Below are positions 410-15,399 of a stretch of 64,000 nucleotides of DNA, piece by piece (the first letter of the stretch is position 1; every line of letters starts with the position of its first letter). The position numbers and the translations under genes are program-made. Below the pieces are notes generated by a model. That model ran no database searches, was not told the DNA's origin, and saw only the letters and a list, made by a program, of their open reading frames with translations. Location of the stretch: positions 1 through 64,000 of the IMG/VR virus record IMGVR_UViG_3300027668_000013; one strand, written 5' to 3'. The stretch comes from a virus.

Positions 410-1906
410 ATGAAAACAATGATAAACATACCAGTAGATAAACTGGATACGCAAAGGTATATCCGGCAACTACGGTGTGTAGTTCGTTGGATGAAAGACT
501 ATAATGCTCGTGGCACTATCGAAGCTGCTACAGGCTTTGGTAAGTCTACATTAGGCTTGATTATTAAAGCTAAAATGAAGACGTTTACAACAATGAAGTA
601 CGGTGGTAAAGTTATTATCGTTGTACCTACTACACCTCTTAAAAAACAATGGGAAAACGTAATGAAAGACCTGGGTTTCTATGAAAACATAGAAGTACAT
701 GTTATTAATACAGTTGCGTTATCTAATGGTTTTTATAGAGATACAGATTTACTTATTATTGATGAAATCCATCTAATGGCTGCTGAAAAGTTTTCCAGAA
801 TATTCGAAAGGATTAACTACAGTTGGATATTAGGATTGACTGCAACGCTTAGTCGATTAGATGGTAAAGAAAGACTCCTTAAACGATTTGCTCCTATTTG
901 TGATTCCATTTCACAGAAAGAAGCTATTAGTAAGGGTTGGATTTCTGATTTTATAGAGTTTAATCTTGCTGTTCCTGTCTCAAGAGAGGAAGCAGAAAGA
1001 CAAATGTCTTTAAATAAAGAAGTTCGTTATTTTATGTCCAAGTTTGGCGATTTTAATCTGTTATTATCATGTTTAAAATCTTCAAATGCAAAGCTTTATG
1101 CACAGCAAAACAATTATGACGAGAAAGATGTAATGAAATGGGCTCGTCAAGGTATGCGGGTAATCACAGAGCGTAAAAGACTCTTAGAAATGCCCCAGCG
1201 TAAGATAGATGTGGCGGCTGAACTTATAAAAGAGTTTAGCTTAAAAACTATCACATTTTCTCAAGCTGCTGATTTTGCAGATGCTGTTGCAGCTAAACTT
1301 GGAGACACAGCTTTAACTTATCACTCAAACATGAGCTCAAAAACAATCAAAGTAGATCAAAAGAAGATTTACAAAACAGAAAAAGGAGCTCTGAATAATG
1401 TAGAAAAGTTAAAGTTAAAAGACGGAGTTAGTAAAGTTATGTATTACGAAAGTAAGAAGAAGGACTCCCAGCACGTAGTTAAGTGGAAACAAGAAAAAGT
1501 TTTCGGTGGAAGTACACTTGCTGCAGATGCAATGAGCAAATTCAAAAACAATGAAATCTCCGTATTATGTTCTGCAAAGGCATTGGATCAAGGTTTCGAC
1601 GATCCTTCTGTTAGACTCGGAGTAGATGGTTCACGTTCTATTAATCCTACGCAGCATACGCAAAGGACAGGACGTGTAGCCAGAATCTTTAAGTTAGAAA
1701 ACGGAAAGAATGCCGCTAAAATCTATGTGAATTTATACATTCCCGATTGGAGTGTTCCTAATTCACGAGATGAGAAAAAACTAAGACAATGCCAAGCTAA
1801 AAACTCTGAAAGTGTTGTGTGGGTTGATGATATCAAGGAATTAAAGTTAATGTTAAATCAAATATTAACAGACCGTGAACAAAAACCTAAAACAATTTCA
1901 GTCTGA
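410..1906 (+). CDS. Superfamily 2 DExH helicase (UvsW/XPB/ResIII-like)
   Basis: Walker A ATGFGKS, motif Ia VVPT, DEIH, motif III TAT, motif V LDQGFD, motif VI QRTGRVAR. Confidence 0.92.
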   Translation: MKTMINIPVDKLDTQRYIRQLRCVVRWMKDYNARGTIEAATGFGKSTLGLIIKAKMKTFTTMKYGGKVIIVVPTTPLKKQWENVMKDLGFYENIEVHVINTVALSNGFYRDTDLLIIDEIHLMAAEKFSRIFERINYSWILGLTATLSRLDGKERLLKRFAPICDSISQKEAISKGWISDFIEFNLAVPVSREEAERQMSLNKEVRYFMSKFGDFNLLLSCLKSSNAKLYAQQNNYDEKDVMKWARQGMRVITERKRLLEMPQRKIDVAAELIKEFSLKTITFSQAADFADAVAAKLGDTALTYHSNMSSKTIKVDQKKIYKTEKGALNNVEKLKLKDGVSKVMYYESKKKDSQHVVKWKQEKVFGGSTLAADAMSKFKNNEISVLCSAKALDQGFDDPSVRLGVDGSRSINPTQHTQRTGRVARIFKLENGKNAAKIYVNLYIPDWSVPNSRDEKKLRQCQAKNSESVVWVDDIKELKLMLNQILTDREQKPKTISV

Positions 1907-1922
1907 AAGTGTTGATAGTACC

Positions 1923-1930
1923 TATCTTTG
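1923..1930 (+). promoter_or_regulatory. Bacteroidota-type -7 promoter element TAnnTTTG
   Basis: TATCTTTG in the intergenic gap before the replication operon; no clear -33 TTTG seen. Confidence 0.45.
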
Positions 1931-1967
1931 AAAATAATATTAACTGCCAATCGGCATAATTTTTAAA

Positions 1968-2561
1968 GTGAGTATGTTATTCAATATCGAAGAAGATTTA
2001 AACCTCTGTCAAGAGTTAAAACTGACAGCAAGACAATTAATGTTTATTAAAATTCTGTATAGAGATCCTAAGTTGGATAAGAAAGAATGGCGGCTTAAAT
2101 CTTATGAGATGAGCTTGCGATTTCAAGACTTAAGTCCTCTTACTACAGATGAACTAAACGATATGGTTGAAAGAGATATTATAATGGATTTGAACACCGG
2201 AAATGGGAAAATTTATTATGATAGTTTCGAGATTAATCCAAAATACAAGAAAAAGTTCTCTATGAATATCGTATCTTGGGTGTCCGAACTTTTCGACGTA
2301 TATCCAAAGTTCTTCTATATGGAAGGTAGAAGATTCAATGCCATAACAACATCAGAAGATGACATCGCTGAGTGCTATCTGAAAGCCATAGGTAAAAGAA
2401 GAGAAACCCACGAAGAGGTTGTCTCATTAATAAAAGAGGCTGCAGACGATAGTGCTATAACAATGGGTATTGAAAAATTTATTAAAACAAAACATTGGTT
2501 ATCCTTAAAAGTTCTAAAACAAGAATCTAAAAGAATAACAAATGACTCAAAACTCGGATAG
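1968..2561 (+). CDS. Hypothetical replication-associated protein (possible initiator or helicase loader)
   Basis: Overlaps the dnaB start; position only, no diagnostic motif; ATG at 1974 is an alternative start. Confidence 0.55.
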   Translation: MSMLFNIEEDLNLCQELKLTARQLMFIKILYRDPKLDKKEWRLKSYEMSLRFQDLSPLTTDELNDMVERDIIMDLNTGNGKIYYDSFEINPKYKKKFSMNIVSWVSELFDVYPKFFYMEGRRFNAITTSEDDIAECYLKAIGKRRETHEEVVSLIKEAADDSAITMGIEKFIKTKHWLSLKVLKQESKRITNDSKLG

Positions 2562-3615
2562 GCCCAATGTTAAAATACTTGAAAAGTTCTCTTCTGCTCA
2601 TGTAGTAGAAAAGAATTTAAAGTATGTTGACGACAGACGTAAAGGACTAATTAAATCATTAGAAACGAAATTCCCAAGGCTGAATAAGAAACTAATGGGT
2701 GGTATCGAATTAGACACAATAACTTGTGTTGCTGCTTTATCTGGCGCAGGTAAGTCAACAATATCGAAATGTCTACGTGATTCTATTTATGAGCTTAATA
2801 AGAGTGTAAATAGTAAACAATACGTATTCAACTTCGAGATGTTAGCTCACCAGCAAATAGGTAGATCGGTAGTTACTGCTTCTAACAAAAGTCTTAACAA
2901 ATTGTATTCGGTTGATGAACCGCTAAGTGACTCAGAATTTAAGTATCTAAAAAACTATTACGATGGATTAAAAGATCGTGATATAGATTTTATAGAAAAC
3001 GCAGATACTGCAGAAACTATAGCTAACTCAATTGTTTACTATTGGAAGACAGAATGTGAAAAGCAAGGTAAAGTACTGATTTACGAGATTGACCATGCGC
3101 TTTTGACTAAAGGAAGACAGGGTCAAGGCGAGAAGGAACGTATAGATGACTTGATGTATGCTCTAATTGATGTGAAAAAGTATATCGCATCAAACGGAGG
3201 ACATTCAGTAGGAATTATTCTATCTCAAATGAACAGAGAAATACGTAAGATTGACAGGATTGCCAATAAGGAAATGCATAGACCAGACACCTCGTGTCTG
3301 TTCGGTGCTTCTTCTATTGAGATGTGCTGTGATTATATCGTATTCTCTCATATGCCAGGTAAATTAGGAATCAAGGATTATTGTGTTCAAAAGTACCCAA
3401 CAGTAATGTATATTGGAAAAGACAGATTTCATATACCCTATTTCGAACTCGTAAAAAATCGCTCAGGTGAACCTGACATAACTATTCCCATGTGGAATAA
3501 GTTGCACAGATTTGATTTCGACGAAATGGATATAGACGTCTTTAAAGATTTACATGAACAACATTTGGAAACTGGTGAGTGCCACCTTACTCCACAAAAA
3601 TCATTAAAAGTTTAA
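2542..3615 (+). CDS. dnaB: DnaB-like SF4 replicative helicase (ATPase domain, no N-terminal domain)
   Basis: Walker A ALSGAGKST, FNFEM, IDH, LSQMNR, GASSIE..CD, VKNRSG. Confidence 0.9.
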   Translation: MTQNSDRPNVKILEKFSSAHVVEKNLKYVDDRRKGLIKSLETKFPRLNKKLMGGIELDTITCVAALSGAGKSTISKCLRDSIYELNKSVNSKQYVFNFEMLAHQQIGRSVVTASNKSLNKLYSVDEPLSDSEFKYLKNYYDGLKDRDIDFIENADTAETIANSIVYYWKTECEKQGKVLIYEIDHALLTKGRQGQGEKERIDDLMYALIDVKKYIASNGGHSVGIILSQMNREIRKIDRIANKEMHRPDTSCLFGASSIEMCCDYIVFSHMPGKLGIKDYCVQKYPTVMYIGKDRFHIPYFELVKNRSGEPDITIPMWNKLHRFDFDEMDIDVFKDLHEQHLETGECHLTPQKSLKV

Positions 3616-3616
3616 A

Positions 3617-4345
3617 ATGGATCTACCAACAAAGCCACGTAAAATACTACGTGACAATCCCAAAGAATTAGTAATCTTTGGTAAACCCAAATGCGGTAAA
3701 ACTACAATAACTTCACATCTTACATTAGATGGAGACTGGTTATTATTAGAACTCGAAGACGGTGGTGCAGACTATGTAGAAGCAACTACATTATTTGCAA
3801 AAAGCTTATCTGATATTAAAGAGATAGGTAGCACAATCATGGCTAATGATAAACCATACAGTGGAATTATTGTAGATACTGTAACTAAACTCGAAGAATT
3901 GATAATGCCTCATGCAGCAGCTTTGTACAAGAAAACACCGATGGGTGTTAACTGGCAAGGCTCTGATGTGAGAACTTTACCAAAGGGTTCTGGTTATTTG
4001 TATATGCGACAAGCATTCTTTGAAGTGTTAGACTACATAAGATCGTGGTCTGATAATATTATCTTACTCGGACATTTGTCAGACAAGATGATCGAGAAGA
4101 AAGGCGAGGAAGTATCTGCAAAGGAATTAGACTTAACTGGTAAAATATCATCTTTGACGTGTGCAAGAGCCGATGCTATTGCATATTGTTACAGAAAAGA
4201 CAACCAAACTATTCTTAATTTCAAGAGTAGTGAGGATGTTATTTGCGGTGCAAGGTCTAAGCATTTAAAAGGACAGGAAATAGTGGTTGCCGAGTCCGAT
4301 GAAAAGGGAAATATCACATACAACTGGAATCAGGTTTATATTTAA
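3617..4345 (+). CDS. Sak4-like / AAA_24 ATPase (recombination, single-strand annealing)
   Basis: FGKPKCGKTT Walker A, LELEDG, IIVDTVT Walker B, LLGH, ADAIAY. Confidence 0.85.
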   Translation: MDLPTKPRKILRDNPKELVIFGKPKCGKTTITSHLTLDGDWLLLELEDGGADYVEATTLFAKSLSDIKEIGSTIMANDKPYSGIIVDTVTKLEELIMPHAAALYKKTPMGVNWQGSDVRTLPKGSGYLYMRQAFFEVLDYIRSWSDNIILLGHLSDKMIEKKGEEVSAKELDLTGKISSLTCARADAIAYCYRKDNQTILNFKSSEDVICGARSKHLKGQEIVVAESDEKGNITYNWNQVYI

Positions 4346-4376
4346 ACCGAATTATTAATTTTAAAAAGCATAAAAA

Positions 4377-4802
4377 ATGTTCAATTTTCAAGGATTATCA
4401 AAACAAAAGACAGTAGAAAACTTTGACGTAAAAGTATTAGCTGCATCAAGAATTAAGTTAAGTCAAAACGCTAAAAATACTATCAGTTTAACTGATGATA
4501 AGCAAGTATTCTTAGATAAAGATGTAACTACAAATTCTTTCTGGATTGCCGCAGTAGAAGAAAACGGTAAGAAACTTACTTCAACTAACACTTTTGGTCA
4601 TAAAGTATTGAACCAAGCATTAGGAGAAAATACAGAGTGGAAGATTGACATTTTAAATTCTAAAGAACACGATGGTGTTACTTATTTTCCATTATCTTTG
4701 ATAGAAAAGACAGAAGAATCTGTGAAGACAATTACATTGGATAAAGTAGGAAACACTGTAGAAGCTGTAGAATTAGAAACTACGGAAGAAGAAACAGTTT
4801 AG
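4377..4802 (+). CDS. Hypothetical protein with acidic C-terminus
   Basis: Clean ORF, A-rich leader, acidic tail VELETTEEETV. Confidence 0.75.
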   Translation: MFNFQGLSKQKTVENFDVKVLAASRIKLSQNAKNTISLTDDKQVFLDKDVTTNSFWIAAVEENGKKLTSTNTFGHKVLNQALGENTEWKIDILNSKEHDGVTYFPLSLIEKTEESVKTITLDKVGNTVEAVELETTEEETV

Positions 4803-4817
4803 TAAAAATAGTATTAT

Positions 4818-4854
4818 GAGACTTTCAATATAACGTTGGAAGTCTCTTTTTTTT
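4818..4854 (+). terminator. Rho-independent terminator
   Basis: GAGACTTTCAA / TTGGAAGTCTC stem followed by T8. Confidence 0.85.
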
Positions 4855-4884
4855 CAAAAATTTTAATAAATAAAAACAAAAATT

Positions 4885-5484
4885 ATGTTCGATTTTTCAA
4901 ACGAAGATTACACTGGCGAAAACAAGTTCGCAGAGATTAACCCAGGATTAAATGTTCCTGCAATTTTAGAAAAAGTAAGTGTTAATGACGAATCTGGAGA
5001 TTTAATTTTCTCTTTTAAAGGTAGTCAAGCTGGAAACACAGGAAGTTTTAATCACAGAGTATGGGCTAATAACTTTGATCCTGAACATGAGTATTACAAC
5101 AAAGATAGAGCAATAAGAACTATAAACTCTACTAAGCATATTTTAAAAGCGTTTTTACACGTTGATAAAGTAGATGCAATTAAGTCTAAAGACTGGTTGG
5201 GTTTTGCTAAAAGTATTGAAACAGCTATGGTTGAAAAAGTTTTTAAAGACAAAGAACTAAAACTAAAGATTGTTCTTAATAACTCAGACAAAGCTATATT
5301 CCCTACATTTCCAGACTTTATTTCGTCAAGCATGATGCCAAAAACATTTAGACTTAACGCAAAGGTAAATCCTAACACAGGTCAGCCATATGAGAGAATT
5401 ACGCCAGTTGAAATGGGAGGTAATGCAACAGAAAGTTTTGATGCAATCGCAACTAATGATGCACCAACACCTAAATTTGGATAA
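4885..5484 (+). CDS. Probable single-stranded DNA-binding protein
   Basis: Lies between the Sak4-like ATPase and the primase; beta-rich N-terminus and flexible acidic/Pro tail ending PKFG; no family-specific motif recognised. Confidence 0.5.
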   Translation: MFDFSNEDYTGENKFAEINPGLNVPAILEKVSVNDESGDLIFSFKGSQAGNTGSFNHRVWANNFDPEHEYYNKDRAIRTINSTKHILKAFLHVDKVDAIKSKDWLGFAKSIETAMVEKVFKDKELKLKIVLNNSDKAIFPTFPDFISSSMMPKTFRLNAKVNPNTGQPYERITPVEMGGNATESFDAIATNDAPTPKFG

Positions 5485-6614
5485 TGATTGAATTTTTACC
5501 AGACATAGATAAACAGTACATACTAAAACATGTTTCTGAAGAAGAAATCTATAAAAGGTATTTCAATCTTGACGTTTCGTTTGAAGGGGGAGCAAAGTTT
5601 TGTTCCCCTTTACGAAGCGACAGAAATCCCACCTGTAATTTTTTCAGACATCGTAATTCAAAAGAAATCTATTTAAAAGACCACGCAGGTCATTTTGTAG
5701 GTAATTGTTTTGATGCGGTAATGGTTTATTATGGATGTACTTTTATGAAAGCATTGCTAATAATAGCAGATGATTTCGAATTAACTAAAACGAATGTTGA
5801 ACGAATGCCTATCAAACATCAGTTGGTAGAAAGAGAAAAATCAGAAATAAAGTTTATAAAAAGAAATTGGAATCAAGAAGATAATGATTATTGGAAAAGT
5901 TATGGCATAAGTGAAGAACTGTTAGAATACTTTAATGTATACGCAGTTCAGAATGTATTTTTGAATGGAAATTTAATGTATACGTATCATAAATCAAACC
6001 CGGCATATGCATATATGTTTGGTGATGATGATATTAAAATATATTTCCCTAAAAAGAAAGAAAATAGATTCATTTGCAATACTTCCGTTACTCAAGGATA
6101 TAAACAGCTTCCCGACAAAGGCAAAATGCTTATAATAACTAAAAGTATGAAAGACATATTAGTCTTATACAACTTAGGTTATTCTGCAATAAGCTTTCAA
6201 AGCGAAACTAAATATATATCCGAAGAACAATATGATGATCTGAAAAATAGATTCGATGAAATTTATTCTCTTTATGATTTTGACCTAACTGGTATTAGAT
6301 CGGCTAATAAAATGAGAAAACTATATGGAATACCCGCATTATTCTTCACCAATGGTAGATTTGGAAAAGAGGATTTTCGTGCCAAAGATGTGTCAGACAA
6401 AATCCAGTTCATATTACACAATACACTCAAGTTATCGGATGTTAGCAGAGAGATACAACGCACAAAAAGGTTATTTATCTCAAGCAACAATGCTGCGTAT
6501 AGTAGCTTCTCACACATCTCGAAACAGAAAAAACTTAATGAATCCATTGAGCCCAGACGAGGTAACGAAAATGAAGGATTTCTACAAGGAATGGATGATT
6601 CCTGTCCCTTTTAG
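5484..6614 (+). CDS. DNA primase (zinc-binding domain plus Toprim)
   Basis: CSPLRSDRNPTC..DH zinc-binding region; Toprim IITKSMKD and YDFDLTG; KDVSD motif. Confidence 0.85.
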   Translation: MIEFLPDIDKQYILKHVSEEEIYKRYFNLDVSFEGGAKFCSPLRSDRNPTCNFFRHRNSKEIYLKDHAGHFVGNCFDAVMVYYGCTFMKALLIIADDFELTKTNVERMPIKHQLVEREKSEIKFIKRNWNQEDNDYWKSYGISEELLEYFNVYAVQNVFLNGNLMYTYHKSNPAYAYMFGDDDIKIYFPKKKENRFICNTSVTQGYKQLPDKGKMLIITKSMKDILVLYNLGYSAISFQSETKYISEEQYDDLKNRFDEIYSLYDFDLTGIRSANKMRKLYGIPALFFTNGRFGKEDFRAKDVSDKIQFILHNTLKLSDVSREIQRTKRLFISSNNAAYSSFSHISKQKKLNESIEPRRGNENEGFLQGMDDSCPF

Positions 6615-6939
6615 AGATGTATCTGGAAAACATCTTTCACTTGGAGATGTAATATACCGAATTGATTATAATAGACTTGTGTTATCAGTTGTTAGTAGAA
6701 TGACAGAAAGTGGCACTTTAACCTTTTTAGAATGTTATTACCCATTATGGGGAAAACAATCAGAAGGAGCACCTACAACTTATAATTACACTGAAGATGG
6801 AATACCTACTGAAAAAGTAGTAAGAACAGAAGGTCATAGTTCTGGTTATGATTCATCTAAGTATATTAAAATAGAAAAGAACGCATTAAGTGAGTTTCAA
6901 AAGAAGCTTATCAAAGACAAACTAAAAATTACAATTTAA
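6538..6939 (+). CDS. Hypothetical protein (~133 aa; start revised from 6325)
   Basis: ATG at 6538 follows A-rich AAAAAACTTA; D..GK.L..GD.I pattern typical of small phage beta-barrel proteins; stop overlaps the rIIA start. Confidence 0.6.
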   Translation: MNPLSPDEVTKMKDFYKEWMIPVPFRDVSGKHLSLGDVIYRIDYNRLVLSVVSRMTESGTLTFLECYYPLWGKQSEGAPTTYNYTEDGIPTEKVVRTEGHSSGYDSSKYIKIEKNALSEFQKKLIKDKLKITI

Positions 6940-9755
6940 TGGCAATACAAGAAATAGAAAAAAGTTCACCTGTTGGTACGGCTGGTATAGACAGGTCTAT
7001 AAATGAAGCTGCAATGGGGATGGTTATGGATATTGTTCAAGCACAACAATACCAAAAACCAATACCTTCTACTGTTAGAGAATTAACTGCAAATGCTGTA
7101 GATTCTCAAAGCGAGAAGGAGAAAGCTATAAAAATTCTAAATGGTGAATCTAAACCAGAAGAGTTCTTTATACAAAGAAAAGGTGCTTTATACGAAGACA
7201 GTAAATGGGATGCGTCATATTATGACTTAAAACATTTAGACCAGGATAATAATGGAATTGAATTACTTTATTTTGAAGGAGAAGGGACAGGTAGATGTGA
7301 TAAATTCATTGTTAAAGATTACGGTGTAGGTGTAGGTTTAAGAAGATTGAAGGGTATTTTAGAAGTAGGTTATTCTACAAAGCGTAATCGTAAGGATGCA
7401 TTAGGTGCATTCGGATTAGGTGCAAAAGTAGGTTTAGCTACAGGGGCTGATTATTACAAGATGACAACTGTACATAACGGTATAAAATATGTTTTAAAGA
7501 TTTTTAACAAAAAAGTTAACTCTTTGATTGCACCATTTAATTTACAAACTAAAGAAAAGAATATTGCCTATGAATTTAAAAACAATAACGGAGAAGTATC
7601 AGGAATTATTTATGGTGAAAAAACAGATGAGTTAAACTACACAGAAATAGAAATACCTTGCCTTAAACATTACAGATATGAATTTGAAACATCAGTAAAG
7701 ACACAATTATTGTTCTTTAGCAATGTTTCTTTTTATAGAGAATATGAAGGTATGGGAGAAGCATTTGAAATAGACTTTAAATCAGAAATTCTACACAACA
7801 GTGATAATCTAATTATTGCTAAAAATGTACCTTACTCAAAGCCATACGTAGTTATCGTAAATGGTGATAATGCAGTAGGTGTATGTTACGGACACATTGA
7901 TTTCAAAGAACTCGAACTCGAAGATTTATCAGGCCCAATCGGTATAAAATGCCAGATTAGACAGGTTTATGAAGATCCCGATACAGGTGAAGAAATTGTT
8001 GTAACTCCTGGTGTAGATGTAATTGCATCTCGTGAAGCTATTCGATGGACTCCTTCTACAAGAGATTTCTTGTTAAGTAAGTTCGAAACAGCTCAAGACG
8101 AAGCTACTATGATTGTTCAAGAACAATTGCAAGAAACAGATTTCTTGAAGTGGATTAAAGCCTGTAATGACATAACAAGTTTTAGTAGAAACGATACTCT
8201 TATTGGAAGATTGTCTAAAATTGTAGATTTAAAGAAAGTAAATCCAATTTTTAACAAGACAAAAATTAGATACCGACAACCAAAACTTATGTTCGAAGGT
8301 ATTGCCAGTGTTAGAAAGATTACTAAAGTTAAAAAACACAGTGGTCTTCATGATATTGAATATAACGAATCTGAATCTTGGTTAACTTTTGATCCTAAAG
8401 ATGCTTATTTCCTTATAAACGAACAAACCAAAGCTAAAAATGATCGTACTAAAAACTTTTTCATAGCAGGACAATCTAATTCTGATTCTTTCTTTAGAAT
8501 AGATATATTCAGTGATGAACAGTTTGAAACATGGTTAGAAAAAAAGCTTACATACTCTAATGTTTTAGGAGAAACTGCTTTTAATAAAATCAAAACAAAG
8601 AAAACTGATTTATTTAATAAAAAAGAATCAGTTTTCAATAAAGTAGAAGATGATGGTTTTAAGAAGAAAAAAGCAAAACTAAAGAAGAAACTAATCGCAA
8701 ACAGAAACAATGTAATCAATTTATTTAAAGAATCTGAAGACTATACTTCATATGAAGATGTAGTAGTTCCAGAAGACTTTAAAGTTAATCTAATTAAGAA
8801 AGAAGAAGAAATAAAGACAGAAACTCGAATTAAAGCACTAAGTAACAAAGAAAGACGTGATTTAGAAGACAGATTGGTTTTAAATACTTTTGTATGTAAA
8901 CATACAAACTACAGTGGTCAACATGAAGTATTATACAAGAAAAGTAAAGTAGAACCAAAAATAAGAGAGATAGAAGATTTTGAAGGAAAATTATACTATG
9001 GTTATCAAATAGATGATGAGAAGATGCAGTTTGCTGCAAATATTCTACATAAACAACTTAGACCACAAGGTTATAATTCCCTTTATGATACTAAAACTTT
9101 CTTTACTGATGAATTTAGACTATGTTCTATTTCTAAAAACAATAAACGTCATTTTAAAGAACATTCGCACATAGATGATTTATATGGAAAACAAGAATTA
9201 ATTAAAAAAGATGGTAAAACATTAGGATTAAAAATAGTTATGGACGACAGAATAGTAAAATGGAACACTGCAAGACTATTGAACGAAAGAATGGGAGACA
9301 TTTCTTTTTTCAGAAATTTCAAGTCAATTGATGAAGATAGAACAGCAGTTTATGATGAGATAATGTTGTATATTAAAGATAACTTTATGGAGAGTTCTGA
9401 GTTTAGAAACACCAGTTCTTACAAGAGTTTTTATAACGATTTTGTATCTTATTTAGATAATGTTGAGAAATTTCAAAACTTTGTAGAAGATGAAAACAAT
9501 AGTAATGAAGACATTTCTGAGAAAGCTAAAGAATTTGCTTTACCAAACGGTACAGTGGGTGGCGTATCTGTAGACAGTGAAATGTTGGAAAAACTAAACG
9601 AATTGCTTAATTATGCAAACCCAGTAAAAGCGTTATTTAATCGTATTGACGTTTTAAACTGTGAGAATCATCATTACGGAAAGCCTACTTTATCAGATGA
9701 TCTTTCAATGTTCTTGAAAGAAATTATTGATATGAGAGGGATTTCAAATAACTAA
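6939..9755 (+). CDS. rIIA: rIIA-like protein with N-terminal GHKL (Hsp90-type) ATPase
   Basis: VRELTANAVDS (N box), DYGVG (G1), YSTK, GAFGLGAK (G2), ASREAI; followed directly by an rIIB-like gene. Confidence 0.8.
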   Translation: MAIQEIEKSSPVGTAGIDRSINEAAMGMVMDIVQAQQYQKPIPSTVRELTANAVDSQSEKEKAIKILNGESKPEEFFIQRKGALYEDSKWDASYYDLKHLDQDNNGIELLYFEGEGTGRCDKFIVKDYGVGVGLRRLKGILEVGYSTKRNRKDALGAFGLGAKVGLATGADYYKMTTVHNGIKYVLKIFNKKVNSLIAPFNLQTKEKNIAYEFKNNNGEVSGIIYGEKTDELNYTEIEIPCLKHYRYEFETSVKTQLLFFSNVSFYREYEGMGEAFEIDFKSEILHNSDNLIIAKNVPYSKPYVVIVNGDNAVGVCYGHIDFKELELEDLSGPIGIKCQIRQVYEDPDTGEEIVVTPGVDVIASREAIRWTPSTRDFLLSKFETAQDEATMIVQEQLQETDFLKWIKACNDITSFSRNDTLIGRLSKIVDLKKVNPIFNKTKIRYRQPKLMFEGIASVRKITKVKKHSGLHDIEYNESESWLTFDPKDAYFLINEQTKAKNDRTKNFFIAGQSNSDSFFRIDIFSDEQFETWLEKKLTYSNVLGETAFNKIKTKKTDLFNKKESVFNKVEDDGFKKKKAKLKKKLIANRNNVINLFKESEDYTSYEDVVVPEDFKVNLIKKEEEIKTETRIKALSNKERRDLEDRLVLNTFVCKHTNYSGQHEVLYKKSKVEPKIREIEDFEGKLYYGYQIDDEKMQFAANILHKQLRPQGYNSLYDTKTFFTDEFRLCSISKNNKRHFKEHSHIDDLYGKQELIKKDGKTLGLKIVMDDRIVKWNTARLLNERMGDISFFRNFKSIDEDRTAVYDEIMLYIKDNFMESSEFRNTSSYKSFYNDFVSYLDNVEKFQNFVEDENNSNEDISEKAKEFALPNGTVGGVSVDSEMLEKLNELLNYANPVKALFNRIDVLNCENHHYGKPTLSDDLSMFLKEIIDMRGISNN

Positions 9756-9784
9756 AATTAATTATTAAATTTAAACTAAAAACT

Positions 9785-10942
9785 ATGATTGTAGTTAACA
9801 AAATGGATGATGTAATAAGCATATCCACAAACAACGAGGAGTACACAATTCCTCATTGCGAAATTAAATTCGCACAATTAATGAAGCTATCTGCTAAAGC
9901 TCAAGAAATTTCTTCTATGGAAGATTATGCAATCTTGATGGAAGATTTAGAAGGAATCCTTAAGCAAGGCGAAATGGAAAAAGCAGAGTCTTTTCACCCA
10001 GACGTGTACAGATGTCCTAAAACAAATGGATATTATCTAAAAATTAAGACAGGAGTTATTTCTTCTGTTGCAATGCCAAAACCTTTAGTTCGAAGATTAG
10101 AGGAGTCTATTGACAAAACAATTGATATTTCACCTTTGCTTAAATGTTGGATGAGATTTTTAAGAAACAAGAAAGCAAATCAATCTGATTTTGCAAACAG
10201 GTTCTTTAATTACATCGACATGAAGTATCAACACCCTAAGATTTACAACGAAAAGTTGGAAGCTGGTTATTCAGAAGAAGTTGCTGAGAAGATGGCTGAA
10301 GTTTTTCAGGTTAAGATTACTAACGAAGGCTTGATAAACTGTTATAAGGTATCTTCAGAAGTTGATTGGGCATATAAGTCAGACGAAGATGGTAACCCTA
10401 TTAAAAAGCCTTTGTATGAGAAAACTTTCGATCCTGTAACTGGTGAAGTGACTGGTGATTCAAGAGAAGGTCTTACTGCAGAAGCAAGAACATTCATTCC
10501 TGCAATAATGGCTATGGGTGGTGATGCTTTTTATTGTGAGGGCGACCTTGTAGATAAAGCAGGTCACATAATTAAAGTTGGTCATGTTCATAGACTTCCT
10601 TCGTGGGATAATGTGAATTGTGATGACAACAGAAGTTGTGTACCTGGATTACACGTAGGTGGATTGCATTATATCTCATATATCAGTGGTGAGATTCATA
10701 ACGTTTTTGTAGATCCTATGCACATTGGTGCCATACCAAATGACGATACAGGCGCAATGCGAGTATTACAGTATTTTGTTCATTCTTCAATGACAGCTGT
10801 AAATGGAGCTATTTATCATTCTTCTAAGTATGCAGAAAAGACTGAAGGAGATTGGAAAGAAATCAAATCTGAAATCCTCAAAAAGTTTGGGGAATTAGAA
10901 AAATCTAATTCTAAAGAAGAAGAAGAGGTAAATGCTTTATAA
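9785..10942 (+). CDS. rIIB: rIIB-like protein
   Basis: ITNEG...YKV and SCVPGLHVG..Y...VDP..I..IP motifs resemble the T4 rIIB C-terminal signature; adjacent to rIIA. Confidence 0.78.
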   Translation: MIVVNKMDDVISISTNNEEYTIPHCEIKFAQLMKLSAKAQEISSMEDYAILMEDLEGILKQGEMEKAESFHPDVYRCPKTNGYYLKIKTGVISSVAMPKPLVRRLEESIDKTIDISPLLKCWMRFLRNKKANQSDFANRFFNYIDMKYQHPKIYNEKLEAGYSEEVAEKMAEVFQVKITNEGLINCYKVSSEVDWAYKSDEDGNPIKKPLYEKTFDPVTGEVTGDSREGLTAEARTFIPAIMAMGGDAFYCEGDLVDKAGHIIKVGHVHRLPSWDNVNCDDNRSCVPGLHVGGLHYISYISGEIHNVFVDPMHIGAIPNDDTGAMRVLQYFVHSSMTAVNGAIYHSSKYAEKTEGDWKEIKSEILKKFGELEKSNSKEEEEVNAL

Positions 10943-10944
10943 AT

Positions 10945-10972
10945 GAGAGAGGGCCTTGAGCCCTCTTTTTTT
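10945..10972 (+). terminator. Rho-independent terminator
   Basis: AGAGGGC-CTTGA-GCCCTCT followed by a T-run. Confidence 0.88.
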
Positions 10973-10985
10973 AAATTAAATTCTT

Positions 10986-11651
10986 ATGCAAACAGTAACA
11001 ATACCCCAATATTTAAGAAGGGTAAAACTGTCTGAAGCACGTCGAGCGAAGTATTACGAATTAGGGAAAAAACCACCCAAAGCCAAGAAGTATCACGATA
11101 AAAATAAATATGAATATCGTGAAGTTAAAGGTTTTGGTAAAAGGCGTTTTTTAATTGATAAAGAAACAGGAGATAGGGTTGTAGCAAACCCACGTGCAGC
11201 AGGCACACCAAACTACATTATGATAAATGGTCAAAAGATTTATAACGGAGAAGTTTCCGGGCCATTTAGAAATAAATTAATGAAGGCTATTAAAAAGGAG
11301 ATGTCAAAATATACAGATACTCTTAAACCTATTAAAGAATTTCCAATAAGAATCAATCTTGAGATACACGATGTAATTCAAGAGGATGGGTTTTCTTATT
11401 GGGATGTAGATAATAGATCCTGGCCTTACATTAAAGCTTTCCAAGATTGTTTAACAGGAGATAGAGGTAATTGTAAGAAAATTATCGAGGACGATCACAT
11501 TATGTATGTGACACAAGCCCCAATACCTTTATTTATACCAGTTAGCGATTCTAAAGATAGAAAGCTTGTATTTACAATTACAAAAGAAAGCGACGATAGG
11601 ATACTAAAGCAAAAAGAATTTAAGGAACATTTAAAAAAATTAAAAAAATGA
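10986..11651 (+). CDS. rusA: RusA-like Holliday junction resolvase with basic N-terminal extension
   Basis: WDVDN....IKAFQDCL....IIEDD matches the RusA DxDN..K..D.L...DD catalytic pattern. Confidence 0.7.
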   Translation: MQTVTIPQYLRRVKLSEARRAKYYELGKKPPKAKKYHDKNKYEYREVKGFGKRRFLIDKETGDRVVANPRAAGTPNYIMINGQKIYNGEVSGPFRNKLMKAIKKEMSKYTDTLKPIKEFPIRINLEIHDVIQEDGFSYWDVDNRSWPYIKAFQDCLTGDRGNCKKIIEDDHIMYVTQAPIPLFIPVSDSKDRKLVFTITKESDDRILKQKEFKEHLKKLKK

Positions 11652-12262
11652 AGTTTGAAGATTATTTAGAAGGTATTAATAGAACCTGGAACAAGGACGA
11701 CAAGCAATCAGAAATTGATCATTGTCGTTTGGCTATAATGGAAGAGGTTGGAGAGATAATAGGTTGGTATAAGAAGATACATGGTTACAAGAGAGAGAAA
11801 ACAAATGAGTGGAGAACAGAATTAAAAGGTGAATTTGGAGATTTAATCTATTATGTGGTTAAATTACTTGAGATACTTGATGAAACTGAAATGATAGCTC
11901 ATGATTTTAAACAACTTTCGTATCAAGATATTATTGAAATAAATCATTTAACTTATATGTCAAGATGTGCTGTGCAAATTTCAGAATTTGTTGAAATGGA
12001 GAAAGATAAATTTGATCAAAGACCTCTAAATGCACTTATTCTAAACAGTCTTGATGGGTTATTTGACTTTACAAGAATGTTAATTGTATACGAAGGTCTT
12101 GATTTTGAAGATGTACTTCTTTCAAACTTATTAAAACTACAAACCAGACACGGTTCTGATTTCGATATTGATTCTACTGTAGAAAAAGGTAGAGATAGAG
12201 AAGCAGAGTCTGAGTCGCTTAATTTAATTACAAAATTCAAACATTTAAAACCAAGAAATTAA
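11648..12262 (+). CDS. mazG: MazG-like nucleoside triphosphate pyrophosphohydrolase
   Basis: EEVGE...KK and EFGDLIYY acidic motifs; C-terminal NLLKLQTRH. Confidence 0.82.
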   Translation: MKFEDYLEGINRTWNKDDKQSEIDHCRLAIMEEVGEIIGWYKKIHGYKREKTNEWRTELKGEFGDLIYYVVKLLEILDETEMIAHDFKQLSYQDIIEINHLTYMSRCAVQISEFVEMEKDKFDQRPLNALILNSLDGLFDFTRMLIVYEGLDFEDVLLSNLLKLQTRHGSDFDIDSTVEKGRDREAESESLNLITKFKHLKPRN

Positions 12263-13320
12263 TGGAAGAATTACATTATTATTCCATTCCTGCTGTATCT
12301 AACAGTGGGTTGAAGGAAATTAACCCTGATCAGGGAGGTTCGCCAGCAAAATTCAAGAAAGTTGTTCTTGATAGAGATGTTACATACGAACCAAATCCGT
12401 CTTTTGAAAACGGGAAGATAATCCACAAGTACGTAGAAGATCCAGCAAACTTTGTTATTTCAGACTTTACAAAGCCGACGGAAACTATGGCCCTATGGGT
12501 TGGGAGAGTCTTTAATGCATTACCAGGTGCTATTACTGTAGATAATTTTCTAAGTTCAGAAAAGATCATAAAGGAAATAGCTTTGGACGTAAGAGAAGGA
12601 GCTTACAAGTCTATGAAAGATGATACTGTAACTGCTAAATTCTGGAAAGAAGGTGCAGAGTACATTAATTATTTATTTATAGAAAGAAGTGATCAAATAA
12701 TTCTGAATCAGCAGCAATTAAACATGATGGGTTTTATTATTGAAAGTATCAATAACAATCCAAAAGCTTATGAGTTGCTTTTCAAAGAGCCAGACTTCAA
12801 AGACGATATAAAAGCTTACAACGAGGAAGCTATTTATTGGAAAAAAGAAGTTAATCCTGGAAGTACTTACAGTCTTGTGAGTATGAACATGAAATCTTTA
12901 GTTGACAGATTCAAATTACATTTTATTTCTAAAAAAACCATTGTTGTAGATTTAATTGACTTTAAAACTACATCTTCTACTGTTGCAAACTTTAAATACA
13001 GTTTTAAAAAGTATCGTTATTATCGACAACTTGCTTTATATAAAGAAGCAATTACAGAGTTTATTAAACAAACTTATATCTTAAAAGGAGATTATCCTGA
13101 AGATACAAGAATTGTTTTTAGTCACTATATAGTTGCTGTAGAAACAACAGGTCTTTATCAATGTAAAGTTTTTAGAATTGGAGAAAAATACATTGAGAAA
13201 GGTGAAAAAGAATACAATCGTTTGTTAAGCATGGTTGCTTATCACCAGGCTTCTGGACAATGGAGTAAAACACAAGAAGAGTTTATACATGGACACGAAG
13301 TCTTAGAACTCGAAGAGTAA
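12262..13320 (+). CDS. PD-(D/E)XK exonuclease (RecE/exonuclease VIII, DUF3799-like)
   Basis: SNSGLK, G..IH, EEAIYW, KSLVDR, IDFKTT, YYRQLALY. Confidence 0.85.
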   Translation: MEELHYYSIPAVSNSGLKEINPDQGGSPAKFKKVVLDRDVTYEPNPSFENGKIIHKYVEDPANFVISDFTKPTETMALWVGRVFNALPGAITVDNFLSSEKIIKEIALDVREGAYKSMKDDTVTAKFWKEGAEYINYLFIERSDQIILNQQQLNMMGFIIESINNNPKAYELLFKEPDFKDDIKAYNEEAIYWKKEVNPGSTYSLVSMNMKSLVDRFKLHFISKKTIVVDLIDFKTTSSTVANFKYSFKKYRYYRQLALYKEAITEFIKQTYILKGDYPEDTRIVFSHYIVAVETTGLYQCKVFRIGEKYIEKGEKEYNRLLSMVAYHQASGQWSKTQEEFIHGHEVLELEE

Positions 13321-13325
13321 CAATC

Positions 13326-13388
13326 AAACCAGCCACAGTTCGAAAAGTACAGTTTAGAAAATGTACCTATTAGACAGTGGCGGTTTTT
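13326..13388 (+). ncRNA. Putative small structured RNA / attenuator
   Basis: AAACC(A)GCCAC pairs with GTGGCGGTTT; inner GTT/GAC and GTACA/TGTAC stems; ends in T5. Confidence 0.45.
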
Positions 13389-13398
13389 AAACTTAATT

Positions 13399-13659
13399 AT
13401 GACAAAAATAATGAAAGAGCCAAAAATAATAAGAGAGTTCGATTTAAAGTACAGCTGGGGAAGCTGGGTGGCAGTAATAAGAAAGCATTTCAGAAGAGAC
13501 GAATATGTTTGGTCAGTATCTGATAAAAATGGAGATGAAACTTATGATTTATACAGTGACATTGACAGTGAGTTAAAATCTCCAGAAGATGCTGAAAAAG
13601 ATATGATAAAAACTGTTTATGATAAAATTGGCCACTGTCCAGATTCACAATTAAGTTGA
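13399..13659 (+). CDS. Hypothetical protein (86 aa)
   Basis: ORF with AT-rich leader in the + strand operon. Confidence 0.7.
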   Translation: MTKIMKEPKIIREFDLKYSWGSWVAVIRKHFRRDEYVWSVSDKNGDETYDLYSDIDSELKSPEDAEKDMIKTVYDKIGHCPDSQLS

Positions 13660-13687
13660 TAATTATTAACTATTTAAAAAAATATTC

Positions 13688-14053
13688 ATGATAAAAGGAT
13701 TTGAAAATGAAACAGAACCATTAAGCGCAGAAGAACTTATAGCATTACCAATACTTATAGAAGGTTTTAAGAAACTTAAAGGAAAAGAATGTGCTATGAC
13801 AGCAAAATATATAGCTGCACAAATGAAAAAGCATCATTTTATAACAATAGATGGTGCAAGAATTAGAAAAGTAGTTAATTATATTAGAACAAATAATAAA
13901 GTGCCATTTCTTATGGCTACAAGTAGAGGATATTATGTATCTGATTCAACAGATGAGATATTAGAATACGTAAAGTCTTTAAAAGACCGAGCTGATTCTA
14001 TTTATCATGTTGCTAAATGTTTAGAAGGTCAAATTAATAATTACGAAATATGA
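13688..14053 (+). CDS. Winged-helix DNA-binding protein (putative regulator)
   Basis: AMTAKYIA...IDGARIRKVVNYIR helix-turn-helix followed by the wing ATSRGYYV. Confidence 0.65.
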   Translation: MIKGFENETEPLSAEELIALPILIEGFKKLKGKECAMTAKYIAAQMKKHHFITIDGARIRKVVNYIRTNNKVPFLMATSRGYYVSDSTDEILEYVKSLKDRADSIYHVAKCLEGQINNYEI

Positions 14054-14187
14054 GTTTTATACTAAATGCTGTTTTAATTGTAATAGTTGGAACAGCAACA
14101 CTTACCCTTATACCTATTGTTATAATGTCAATTGTTTGGATTTTGTACACATTAATCTATATAATTAAAAAAATTTTTAAAAACTGA
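14050..14187 (+). CDS. Small membrane protein, 45 aa (absent from the ORF track)
   Basis: ATGA overlap with the upstream stop; MSFILNAVLIVIVGTATLTLIPIVIMSIVWILYTLIYIIKKIFKN* is hydrophobic with a basic tail. Confidence 0.7.
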   Translation: MSFILNAVLIVIVGTATLTLIPIVIMSIVWILYTLIYIIKKIFKN

Positions 14188-14364
14188 AATATAACTCTAT
14201 TAGATGCAATAATCTAAACAGTATCAAACAAAAGACAGACGAGAGAAACAAGTACCAATTTAATAAATCCTTTTTGGAATTTAGTACTTAAAGGTGGAAT
14301 AGCATATTGTAAACAAGAGAACTGCACTTACAGAGGAGAGTTTAGTCGAACGAGTTATATTTCA
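14185..14364 (+). ncRNA. Putative ~180-nt structured RNA closed by a perfect 13-bp inverted repeat
   Basis: TGAAATATAACTC (14185-14197) is the exact reverse complement of GAGTTATATTTCA (14352-14364); internal stems TTAGAT/ATCTAA, GACAGAC/GTTTAGTC, AAGTAC/GTACTT and AGGTG/CACTT. Confidence 0.6.
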
Positions 14365-14376
14365 AAAAAACATTTT

Positions 14377-15237
14377 ATGAAAATCCAAAAGATTGATCGA
14401 AAATCTATGGTAATAAGGGAGTCTGGAAGGAGTAGTGATTACATTACTCCTTCTTTTGGCTATGGGTGTTTGTTAAATTGTAGCTATTGCTATATGAAAC
14501 GACATCTTTCCAAAGGACTATCAATAGCAAGAAATGCTAATCAAATTTTAAGTGAAGTAAACAACCATTCGTATTTTGTTGCCGATGTAGAAAAGCCTAA
14601 TCAAACACATAAAGCACATATCACTTATGATATTGCATGTAACGAGGATTTTGCACTACATAGAAAACACCACGATTGGAAATTTATTTTTGATTTTTTT
14701 AGAAATCATCCAATTGCTATGGCTACATTTGCAACCAAGATAATACCTGTTGAATTTCTAAATTACGATCCTGATAAAAAAGTTAGGATTAGATTTAGTT
14801 TAATGCCACAAGTAATATCTAATGAATTGGAGCCAAACACACCTGCTATCATAGATAGGATAAAGGCTGTAGACGCTTTTATTGACGCTGGTTATGAAGT
14901 TCATCTTAATTTTAGCCCGGTCATTGTATATAAGAATTGGTTAGAAGATTACAAGTTTTTGTTTCAAATGTGCAATGATTACATTGATTACAAAGACGAA
15001 GTAAAATGCGAAGTAATCTTTCTTACACATAATGAAAGAAAGCATTATGTAAATTTAGAAAACAATGTAGGTGGTGAAACTTTATTATGGACACCTCAAA
15101 ACCAGGAGAAGAAAGTATCAAGTTATGGAGGTACGAATGTTAGATATAAACGTAATTTAAAAAACAATTATATAAAATTATTCGTAGACTTGCATGACAG
15201 AATTATTAACTGGAATAAAATCCGCTACATTTTTTAG
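14377..15237 (+). CDS. Spore photoproduct lyase-like radical SAM protein
   Basis: GCLLNCSYCY (CxxxCxxC plus Tyr); DIACNED aligns with the SPL EAACTSD Cys motif; FATK, RIRFSLMP, RIKAV....AGYEV...FSPVI. Confidence 0.85.
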   Translation: MKIQKIDRKSMVIRESGRSSDYITPSFGYGCLLNCSYCYMKRHLSKGLSIARNANQILSEVNNHSYFVADVEKPNQTHKAHITYDIACNEDFALHRKHHDWKFIFDFFRNHPIAMATFATKIIPVEFLNYDPDKKVRIRFSLMPQVISNELEPNTPAIIDRIKAVDAFIDAGYEVHLNFSPVIVYKNWLEDYKFLFQMCNDYIDYKDEVKCEVIFLTHNERKHYVNLENNVGGETLLWTPQNQEKKVSSYGGTNVRYKRNLKNNYIKLFVDLHDRIINWNKIRYIF

Positions 15238-15364: not shown

Positions 15365-15399
15365 AAAAAAGGAAGGGCTAAGATCCTTCCTTTTTTTTT
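15365..15399. terminator. Bidirectional intrinsic terminator at the convergence of the two gene blocks
   Basis: A6-GGAAGG-loop-CCTTCC-T9 between convergent genes. Confidence 0.9.

Follow-up and report, generated by a model that had tools for sequence, protein, structure and literature searches.

What purpose, if any, is served by the untranslated stretch that separates a spore-photoproduct-lyase-like (SPL-like, hereafter SPL) radical SAM gene from its upstream neighbors in a viral genome, and by the perfect inverted repeat that frames most of it? A preliminary description of this DNA had read the 180 nt between the outer ends of the repeat as an undescribed multi-stem RNA, and the question was whether they represent a conserved structured RNA, a structure acting on the SPL gene itself or a mere trace of recombination. 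The window analyzed here (64 kb) is the first part of the 77.5-kb IMG/VR virus record IMGVR_UViG_3300027668_000013, which has a G+C content of 32%, is estimated to be 80% complete and is taken by us to derive from an uncultured marine crAss-like phage; the stretch is present in marine metagenome runs. A rightward block of replication-type genes extends from 410 to 15237 and has the SPL gene as its final gene, and the leftward block includes the gene for a 5322-aa protein. The features around the gap are collected in Table 1. Within the replication block, the 938-aa and 385-aa proteins encoded at 6939-10942 match RIIA- and RIIB-type PHROG families.

Table 1. Features at and around the gap upstream of the SPL gene (positions in the window)
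Feature	Position	Strand	Remarks
Exonuclease VIII-like PD-(D/E)XK protein	12262-13320	+ block	
86-aa ORF	between the exonuclease VIII-like gene and the 121-aa gene		
121-aa phrog_2113 protein (o121)	13688-14053	+ block	
45-codon hydrophobic ORF (o45), putative gene	14050-14187	+	ATG overlaps the o121 stop (ATGA)
Outer left arm	14105-14144	+	inside o45; three predicted helices (10, 7 and 10 bp) with SPL codons 2-15
Inverted-repeat left arm	14185-14197	+	its first three bases are the o45 TGA stop
Looped-out core, 154 nt	14198-14351	+	hairpins 14200-14217 and 14250-14289; remainder without stable fold
Inverted-repeat right arm	14352-14364	+	13/13 bp match to the left arm
A-rich 12-nt leader plus SPL ATG, predicted unpaired	14365-14379	+	15-nt internal loop between two long-range helices
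SPL-like radical SAM gene, 286 aa	14377-15237	+	Pfam PF20903, E=3.6e-22
Outer right arm	14380-14419	+	SPL codons 2-15
GC-rich hairpin between A and T runs, convergent junction	15365-15396	not assigned	

The gap, its inverted repeat and its probable transcription

The basic geometry given in the preliminary description was reproduced: the repeat is perfect over 13 bp, its arms are 154 nt apart, it ends 12 nt before the SPL ATG, and the 189 nt without an ORF in which it lies form the largest non-coding gap of the + block. When the gap was shuffled, none of 1000 sequences contained a 13-bp closing helix, and the longest one obtained measured 10 bp. The 13-bp repeat is real, and it is probably not a product of chance.

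The interior of the element turned out to be far less structured than had been proposed. Partition function calculations gave pair probabilities of about 1.0 for twelve pairs of the closing helix and of 0.54 for the thirteenth, the terminal one, and they supported the hairpin TTAGAT/ATCTAA (about 0.9). Two further stems had been drawn at a junction; that at 14250-14289 was recovered with a pair probability of about 0.7, but that at 14292-14329 shrank to a 3-bp helix with a probability of at most 0.44, and the helix GACAGAC/GTTTAGTC that was said to lead into this junction did not exceed 0.1. The fold ensemble was diffuse, with a frequency of 0.0007 for the minimum free energy (MFE) structure. 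The two strands had folding z-scores, calculated on 197 nt, of -2.3 (+) and -2.4 (minus), and 21% of the 190-nt windows across the whole record folded equally well or better relative to their shuffles, the folding energy of the 180 nt being ordinary for this genome. As judged from these predictions, the proposed 180-nt multi-stem RNA would consist mostly of the closing helix and two small hairpins. Since the robust helices are all purely Watson-Crick, they are silent on which strand matters and on whether it matters as RNA or as DNA.

Perfect 13-bp inverted repeats with a spacer of up to 300 nt occur five times in the whole window, versus 1.27 expected from first-order Markov shuffles. The remaining four have at least one arm each within an ORF and share no motif with the repeat at 14185/14352.

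The o45 gene, the gap and the SPL gene lie in one and the same reading frame, whose sole stops are the TGA at 14185 and a TAA at 14215, and the 53 codons that precede the SPL ATG are open but devoid of ATG, GTG or TTG, which makes them the longest such stretch in the record. A coding role for this 53-codon extension was considered and rejected, the Pfam match not being lengthened by it and no convincing alignment being found among 731 SPL matches. Variants at the strain level occur in marine metagenomes; one of them, a 336-nt contig of run X3 that covers 14120-14454, carries 12 substitutions and an extra T after 14319, and this natural +1 insertion indicates that the core is not coding; the open stretch upstream of the SPL ATG is treated here as non-coding. 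Equally rejected was the idea that the gap is a remnant of the ORFs found upstream in homologous loci, for which the best match (E=0.001) came from a tiny database and fell at an inconsistent position.

Scanning of the gap for sigma-70-like promoters gave results at chance level, the Bacteroidota-type -33/-7 pattern had no match in it, and the gaps of this genome revealed no common motif. No terminator-like hairpin was observed in the gap, other gaps of the genome carrying clear GC-rich terminators, and the purine skew of the gap equals that of the + genes. The absence of a terminator and this skew indicate that the gap is most likely transcribed together with o121, o45 and SPL. The GC-rich hairpin at the convergent junction downstream of SPL is likely to mark the point at which the + transcript with the leader and SPL terminates. 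The sole RNA contig that could be placed on the locus covers 14456-14615, within the SPL coding sequence. The 78-nt gap that follows the exonuclease-like gene (13321-13398) likewise has a long-range closing helix, AACCAGCCACAGT/ACAGTGGCGGTT, with a small hairpin inside it and TTTTT after it; this could be a terminator whose loop is unusually large.

Comparison with known families and with other SPL loci

Searching the whole window with cmscan against Rfam 15 produced no match at the gathering threshold. When 13900-14700 was searched at E <=10, the element was overlapped by a single match, to mir-146 on the minus strand, with 13.4 bits versus a gathering threshold of 50, and ARAGORN called neither a tRNA nor a tmRNA. 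The likenesses to 6S RNA, RNase P, riboswitches and retrons that had been mentioned for the element found no support in Rfam, and the reverse transcriptase that a retron calls for (PF00078) had no match in the 77.5-kb record. As to a miniature mobile element, the terminal inverted repeats match at 13/13 bp, but this reading failed on copy number: the element matched only itself in the 77.5-kb record, and a search with both arms gave zero matches in IMG/VR and in 185,579 GTDB species genomes. The element is most likely not a riboswitch, and it is neither a member of a known RNA family nor a repeated mobile element.

Homologues of the element were sought in several collections. BLASTN (word size 7) and nhmmer comparisons with 80 SPL loci and 80+3 o121 loci returned noise only, the top match (locus L101) falling within a 223-aa ORF. 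A covariance model built on the single sequence (R1) found nothing below E=0.06 elsewhere in the window, in 163 related loci (about 0.83-0.89 Mb) or in 12 kb of the Cellulophaga crAss-like phage phi14:2. BLAST against the whole records of loci L010 and L012 and of phi14:2 yielded one 16-nt exact match only, in the L010 record, where it forms the start of a 91-aa ORF that has 5 residues in common with the element. An exact-pattern scan of IMG/VR for the two purine-rich strands gave nothing. Close relatives of the phage itself were looked for through o352, through the o121 alignment and through o121 in JGI metagenomes, and none exceeded 51% identity, the value of the best o121 match in IMG/VR and the JGI metagenomes. 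The GenBank phage collection contained no DNA or protein match, and this included SPL, which had no tblastn match in 50,697 GenBank phage records. The claim of an undescribed multi-stem RNA thus fails the test of conservation, no homologue having been found in the 163 loci, phi14:2 or the IMG/VR and GTDB scans, and because there are no homologues there is no covariation either. As far as these sequence collections go, a new conserved structured RNA family was not borne out, and the element appears to be a singleton.

At least 589 IMG/VR stretches encode an SPL relative, and 731 cluster representatives match SPL at E <=0.001; the gene is widespread in uncultured phages and occurs in many unrelated neighborhoods. 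Among the 80 best SPL loci (64-84% identity), which we used as the context set, the neighbors differ, and o45 has no homologue in any of them. L010 alone shares o352 and o121, and there SPL sits between these two genes, whereas in the phage studied here it follows o121. SPL overlaps or abuts the upstream ORF in most of the 80 loci, and in each of the six closest full-length homologues the intergenic distance is -1 or -4. Where SPL is preceded by a gap of 120-530 nt, this gap does not resemble the element in sequence, and its potential for a closing helix is no greater than expected by chance; the 185-nt gap of L010 consists of unrelated sequence with an ordinary terminator hairpin. Because SPL homologues are mostly without a leader, a leader or riboswitch family tied to SPL is not supported. 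The overlap of the closest homologues with their upstream ORFs points to coupling as the ancestral state of the SPL gene.

ARAGORN made tmRNA-like calls in two SPL-bearing phage contigs, L013 (2370-2726) and L068 (6015-6401), and the call in L013 sits in a 375-nt gap directly upstream of SPL. Both calls may be false positives in AT-rich DNA.

Predicted long-range pairing around the SPL start codon

Examination of the flanks revealed that the 13-bp repeat is the inner perfect core of an imperfect palindrome of about 315 nt (14105-14419), which extends into o45 on one side and into the SPL coding sequence on the other. Its outer arms form a 40-nt pair that is 70% complementary. When 14095-14430 (336 nt) was folded, the 13-bp helix and the outer helices nested around it were common to the MFE and centroid structures (total z=-1.65); the outer ones pair 14105-14114 with 14409-14419, 14127-14133 with 14391-14397, and 14135-14144 with 14380-14389, the last one through 10 perfect pairs. 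The segment left unpaired between these helices and the 13-bp helix contains the SPL ATG and no Shine-Dalgarno sequence.

The strength of this pairing was compared with several controls. The outer arms alone formed a duplex of -29.6 kcal/mol (p=0.008 versus shuffles), and 3.6% of the genomic controls of the same geometry were as good; the whole arms reached -41.6 kcal/mol, within the top 0.6% of same-geometry pairs genome-wide. A start-region score was also calculated for each gene as the pairing of positions -25 to +45 with the upstream 305 nt. For SPL the duplex amounted to -41.1 kcal/mol, with z=-7.0 versus its own shuffles, none of 300 shuffles reaching this value. Across the 56 genes of the record, SPL was the extreme case with z=-6.7, the next gene having -2.8 (mean -0.28, sd 1.36), and the same score in 64 homologous loci gave a mean z of -0.47 and a best value of -3.5. 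On the minus strand the long-range pairing is just as good (-60.7 versus -58.6 kcal/mol), and it includes two G-U pairs only. The complementary segments, their predicted pairing and its statistical oddity are thus established features of this locus, and in the predicted helices the start region of the downstream gene pairs inside the upstream cistron, as translational coupling would demand.

The reading that we favor, tentatively and while holding it to be somewhat short of probable, is that the gap may work as a lineage-specific mRNA clamp that couples the translation of SPL to upstream translation; it builds on the modeled pairing. The 180 nt would be an unconserved intercistronic leader on the + strand and part of an o121-o45-SPL message. 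In this mRNA, the 13-bp helix and the outer helices of 10, 7 and 10 bp would loop out the 154-nt core; the SPL start codon would then lie in the 15-nt internal loop, and the 3' half of o45 would pair with positions +4 to +43. The TGA of o45 is situated within the 13-bp helix, and ribosomes that read o45 as far as this stop would melt the pairing of the left arms and thereby make the SPL initiation region accessible. In this way upstream translation would gate that of SPL, or be coupled to it, across 189 nt, and the clamp would restore what the closest homologues obtain from a stop codon that overlaps the start codon of the next gene. We infer that the leader is transcribed, that o45 is translated and that the two translation events are coupled. 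The pairing could also be a DNA-level palindrome, which is conceivable because it is equal on both strands and contains only the two G-U pairs, and the hydrophobic sequence of o45 could reflect nothing else than the reverse complement of the A-rich 5' end of SPL.

A cis role on the radical SAM gene, which the preliminary description had placed first, stays our best guess, but not in the form in which it was proposed; what stands is the long-range pairing, which reaches past the coordinates given there and surrounds the region of the SPL start codon. We regard the element as an orphan palindromic leader that most likely acts in cis, as an mRNA structure, on the start of SPL, or else is a recombination scar. 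It is very improbable that the 154-nt core adds to the clamp a sensing domain that would decide, in response to a ligand, temperature or a protein, whether the clamp closes on the start of SPL, a radical SAM gene of the DNA-repair type; a core of this kind would be an orphan riboswitch-like device, its role possibly akin to that of the non-coding RNAs of phi14:2.

Translational coupling via long-range mRNA pairing is known from the "Min Jou" interaction between the coat and replicase genes of phage MS2 and from rpmI-rplT of E. coli. As in these systems, the start region of SPL lies in a predicted helix with sequence of the upstream cistron, and ribosomes on the latter would open the helix. Unlike in MS2 and rpmI-rplT, the pairing partners at SPL are split by a 154-nt looped-out spacer that has a perfect closing helix of its own, the start codon itself is unpaired, and the predicted arrangement is seen in one lineage only. 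If the clamp operates as envisaged, it shows how an accessory gene that a phage has acquired horizontally stays linked in translation to its neighbors after a 180-nt spacer has come in between, and the locus would be a clean natural case for start-site control in Shine-Dalgarno-poor messages of the Bacteroidota type.

Alternative origins of the palindrome

Rather unlikely, but the most serious alternative to the clamp, is that the palindrome is a neutral scar, left by an inverted duplication or illegitimate recombination when the SPL cassette was acquired or moved, and that it has no function. According to this explanation, about 70-90 nt of the SPL 5' end were copied in reverse, o45 is the drifted left copy, and the gap is a plain spacer that carries at most a promoter. 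The mobility of SPL is in agreement with such an event, given the many unrelated contexts of the gene, the single syntenic locus (L010) among the 80 and the different position of SPL relative to o121 in that locus and in the studied phage. The arms, moreover, align as perfect blocks within an overall identity of 61% and with a 25-nt indel, a pattern compatible with an inverted duplication of the 5' end of SPL long ago, and both the symmetry of the pairing between strands and the lack of conservation in every search carried out are what a scar would show. It is harder to reconcile with a scar that decay has spared the non-coding 13-bp and 10-bp blocks, which are perfect, but not the remainder of the arms, and that the right arm coincides exactly with the translation start region. 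In addition, the G+C content (0.31) and skew of the element are those of the genome, so that it is not recent foreign DNA. A scar and nothing more would still document how gene cassettes are pasted into crAss-like genomes; under the clamp and the scar alike, no new RNA family is opened.

That the element acts as a structured RNA in its own right, be it a leader that senses a ligand or a small RNA acting in trans, seems improbable to us. Its closing helix and two local hairpins would suit such a molecule, and a precedent exists in phage phi14:2, whose long intergenic regions are highly transcribed and of unknown function (10.1101/2020.03.07.982082). The gene-free stretch of phi14:2 between g004 and g006 spans about 1.7 kb (2905-4601), and the gap upstream of SPL resembles it in being a gene-free stretch, presumably transcribed rightward, in the replication or early arm of a marine crAss-like phage. 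The SPL gap, however, comprises only 189 nt and occupies the distal end of the arm, and neither sequence comparison nor the covariance model relates it to phi14:2. Further arguments against an independent RNA are that there is no relevant Rfam match even at E <=10, that the covariance model finds no homologue in the related loci or in phi14:2, that most of the core is without a stable fold, that SPL homologues are normally leaderless and that the element has no terminator of its own.

Still less credit can be given to the insertion of a 180-bp non-autonomous element of the MITE type with 13-bp termini between an o45 and an SPL gene that formerly overlapped. Bacterial MITEs, such as the Correia elements, are small and have terminal inverted repeats; the present element is likewise small, has perfect termini and is intergenic, beside a start codon. 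Deletion of 14185-14371 would make o45 end at the TGA of the SPL ATGA, an overlap like that of the homologues, but this outcome has a one-in-three chance. The sequences that directly flank the element are AAAAAC (left) and AAAAAAC (right), a repeat that could be a target-site duplication but is offset by one base and lies within an A-rich run. Unlike Correia-type elements, it is present in a single copy, and its complementarity runs past the supposed termini.

Least probable of all the readings is an invertible promoter, in which a recombinase would flip the 154-bp core between the 13-bp repeats and so switch SPL on and off: short inverted repeats around some 150 bp directly upstream of a gene resemble the architecture of Bacteroidota invertons, but neither a tyrosine nor a serine recombinase (PF00589, PF00239) was matched in the 80%-complete record, although a host enzyme could act, no promoter consensus rose above chance on either strand of the core, and in the contigs of two runs (X2 and X3) that cover the core it was always oriented as in the assembly, with no strand-changing joint reported, a weak test given that minor forms drop out of contigs.

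Two other structures were encountered in the course of this work. The first is a 13-bp hairpin GGAAGGAGTAGTG/CATTACTCCTTCT at 14424-14457, within SPL codons 16-27 (peptide SGRSSDYITPSF); the 190-nt window 14372-14561 has a folding z of -3.9. Both the nucleotides of GGAAGGAGTAGTG/CATTACTCCTTCT and the hairpin, at -17 to -21 kcal/mol, are found again in the closest SPL homologues (L004, L005, L008, L012, L017, L020 and L073), and more distant SPL homologues keep the peptide SGRSSDYITPSF without the hairpin. The second lies at the far end of the record, outside the window (76579-77092; 280-793 of locus L176), where a gene-free stretch of 514 nt accompanies rightward genes. ARAGORN and Rfam made no call in it, and it contains two similar units with a tRNA-like T-arm (GGTTCGATTCC between complementary pentamers); this stretch may correspond to the non-coding RNAs that phi14:2 makes early.
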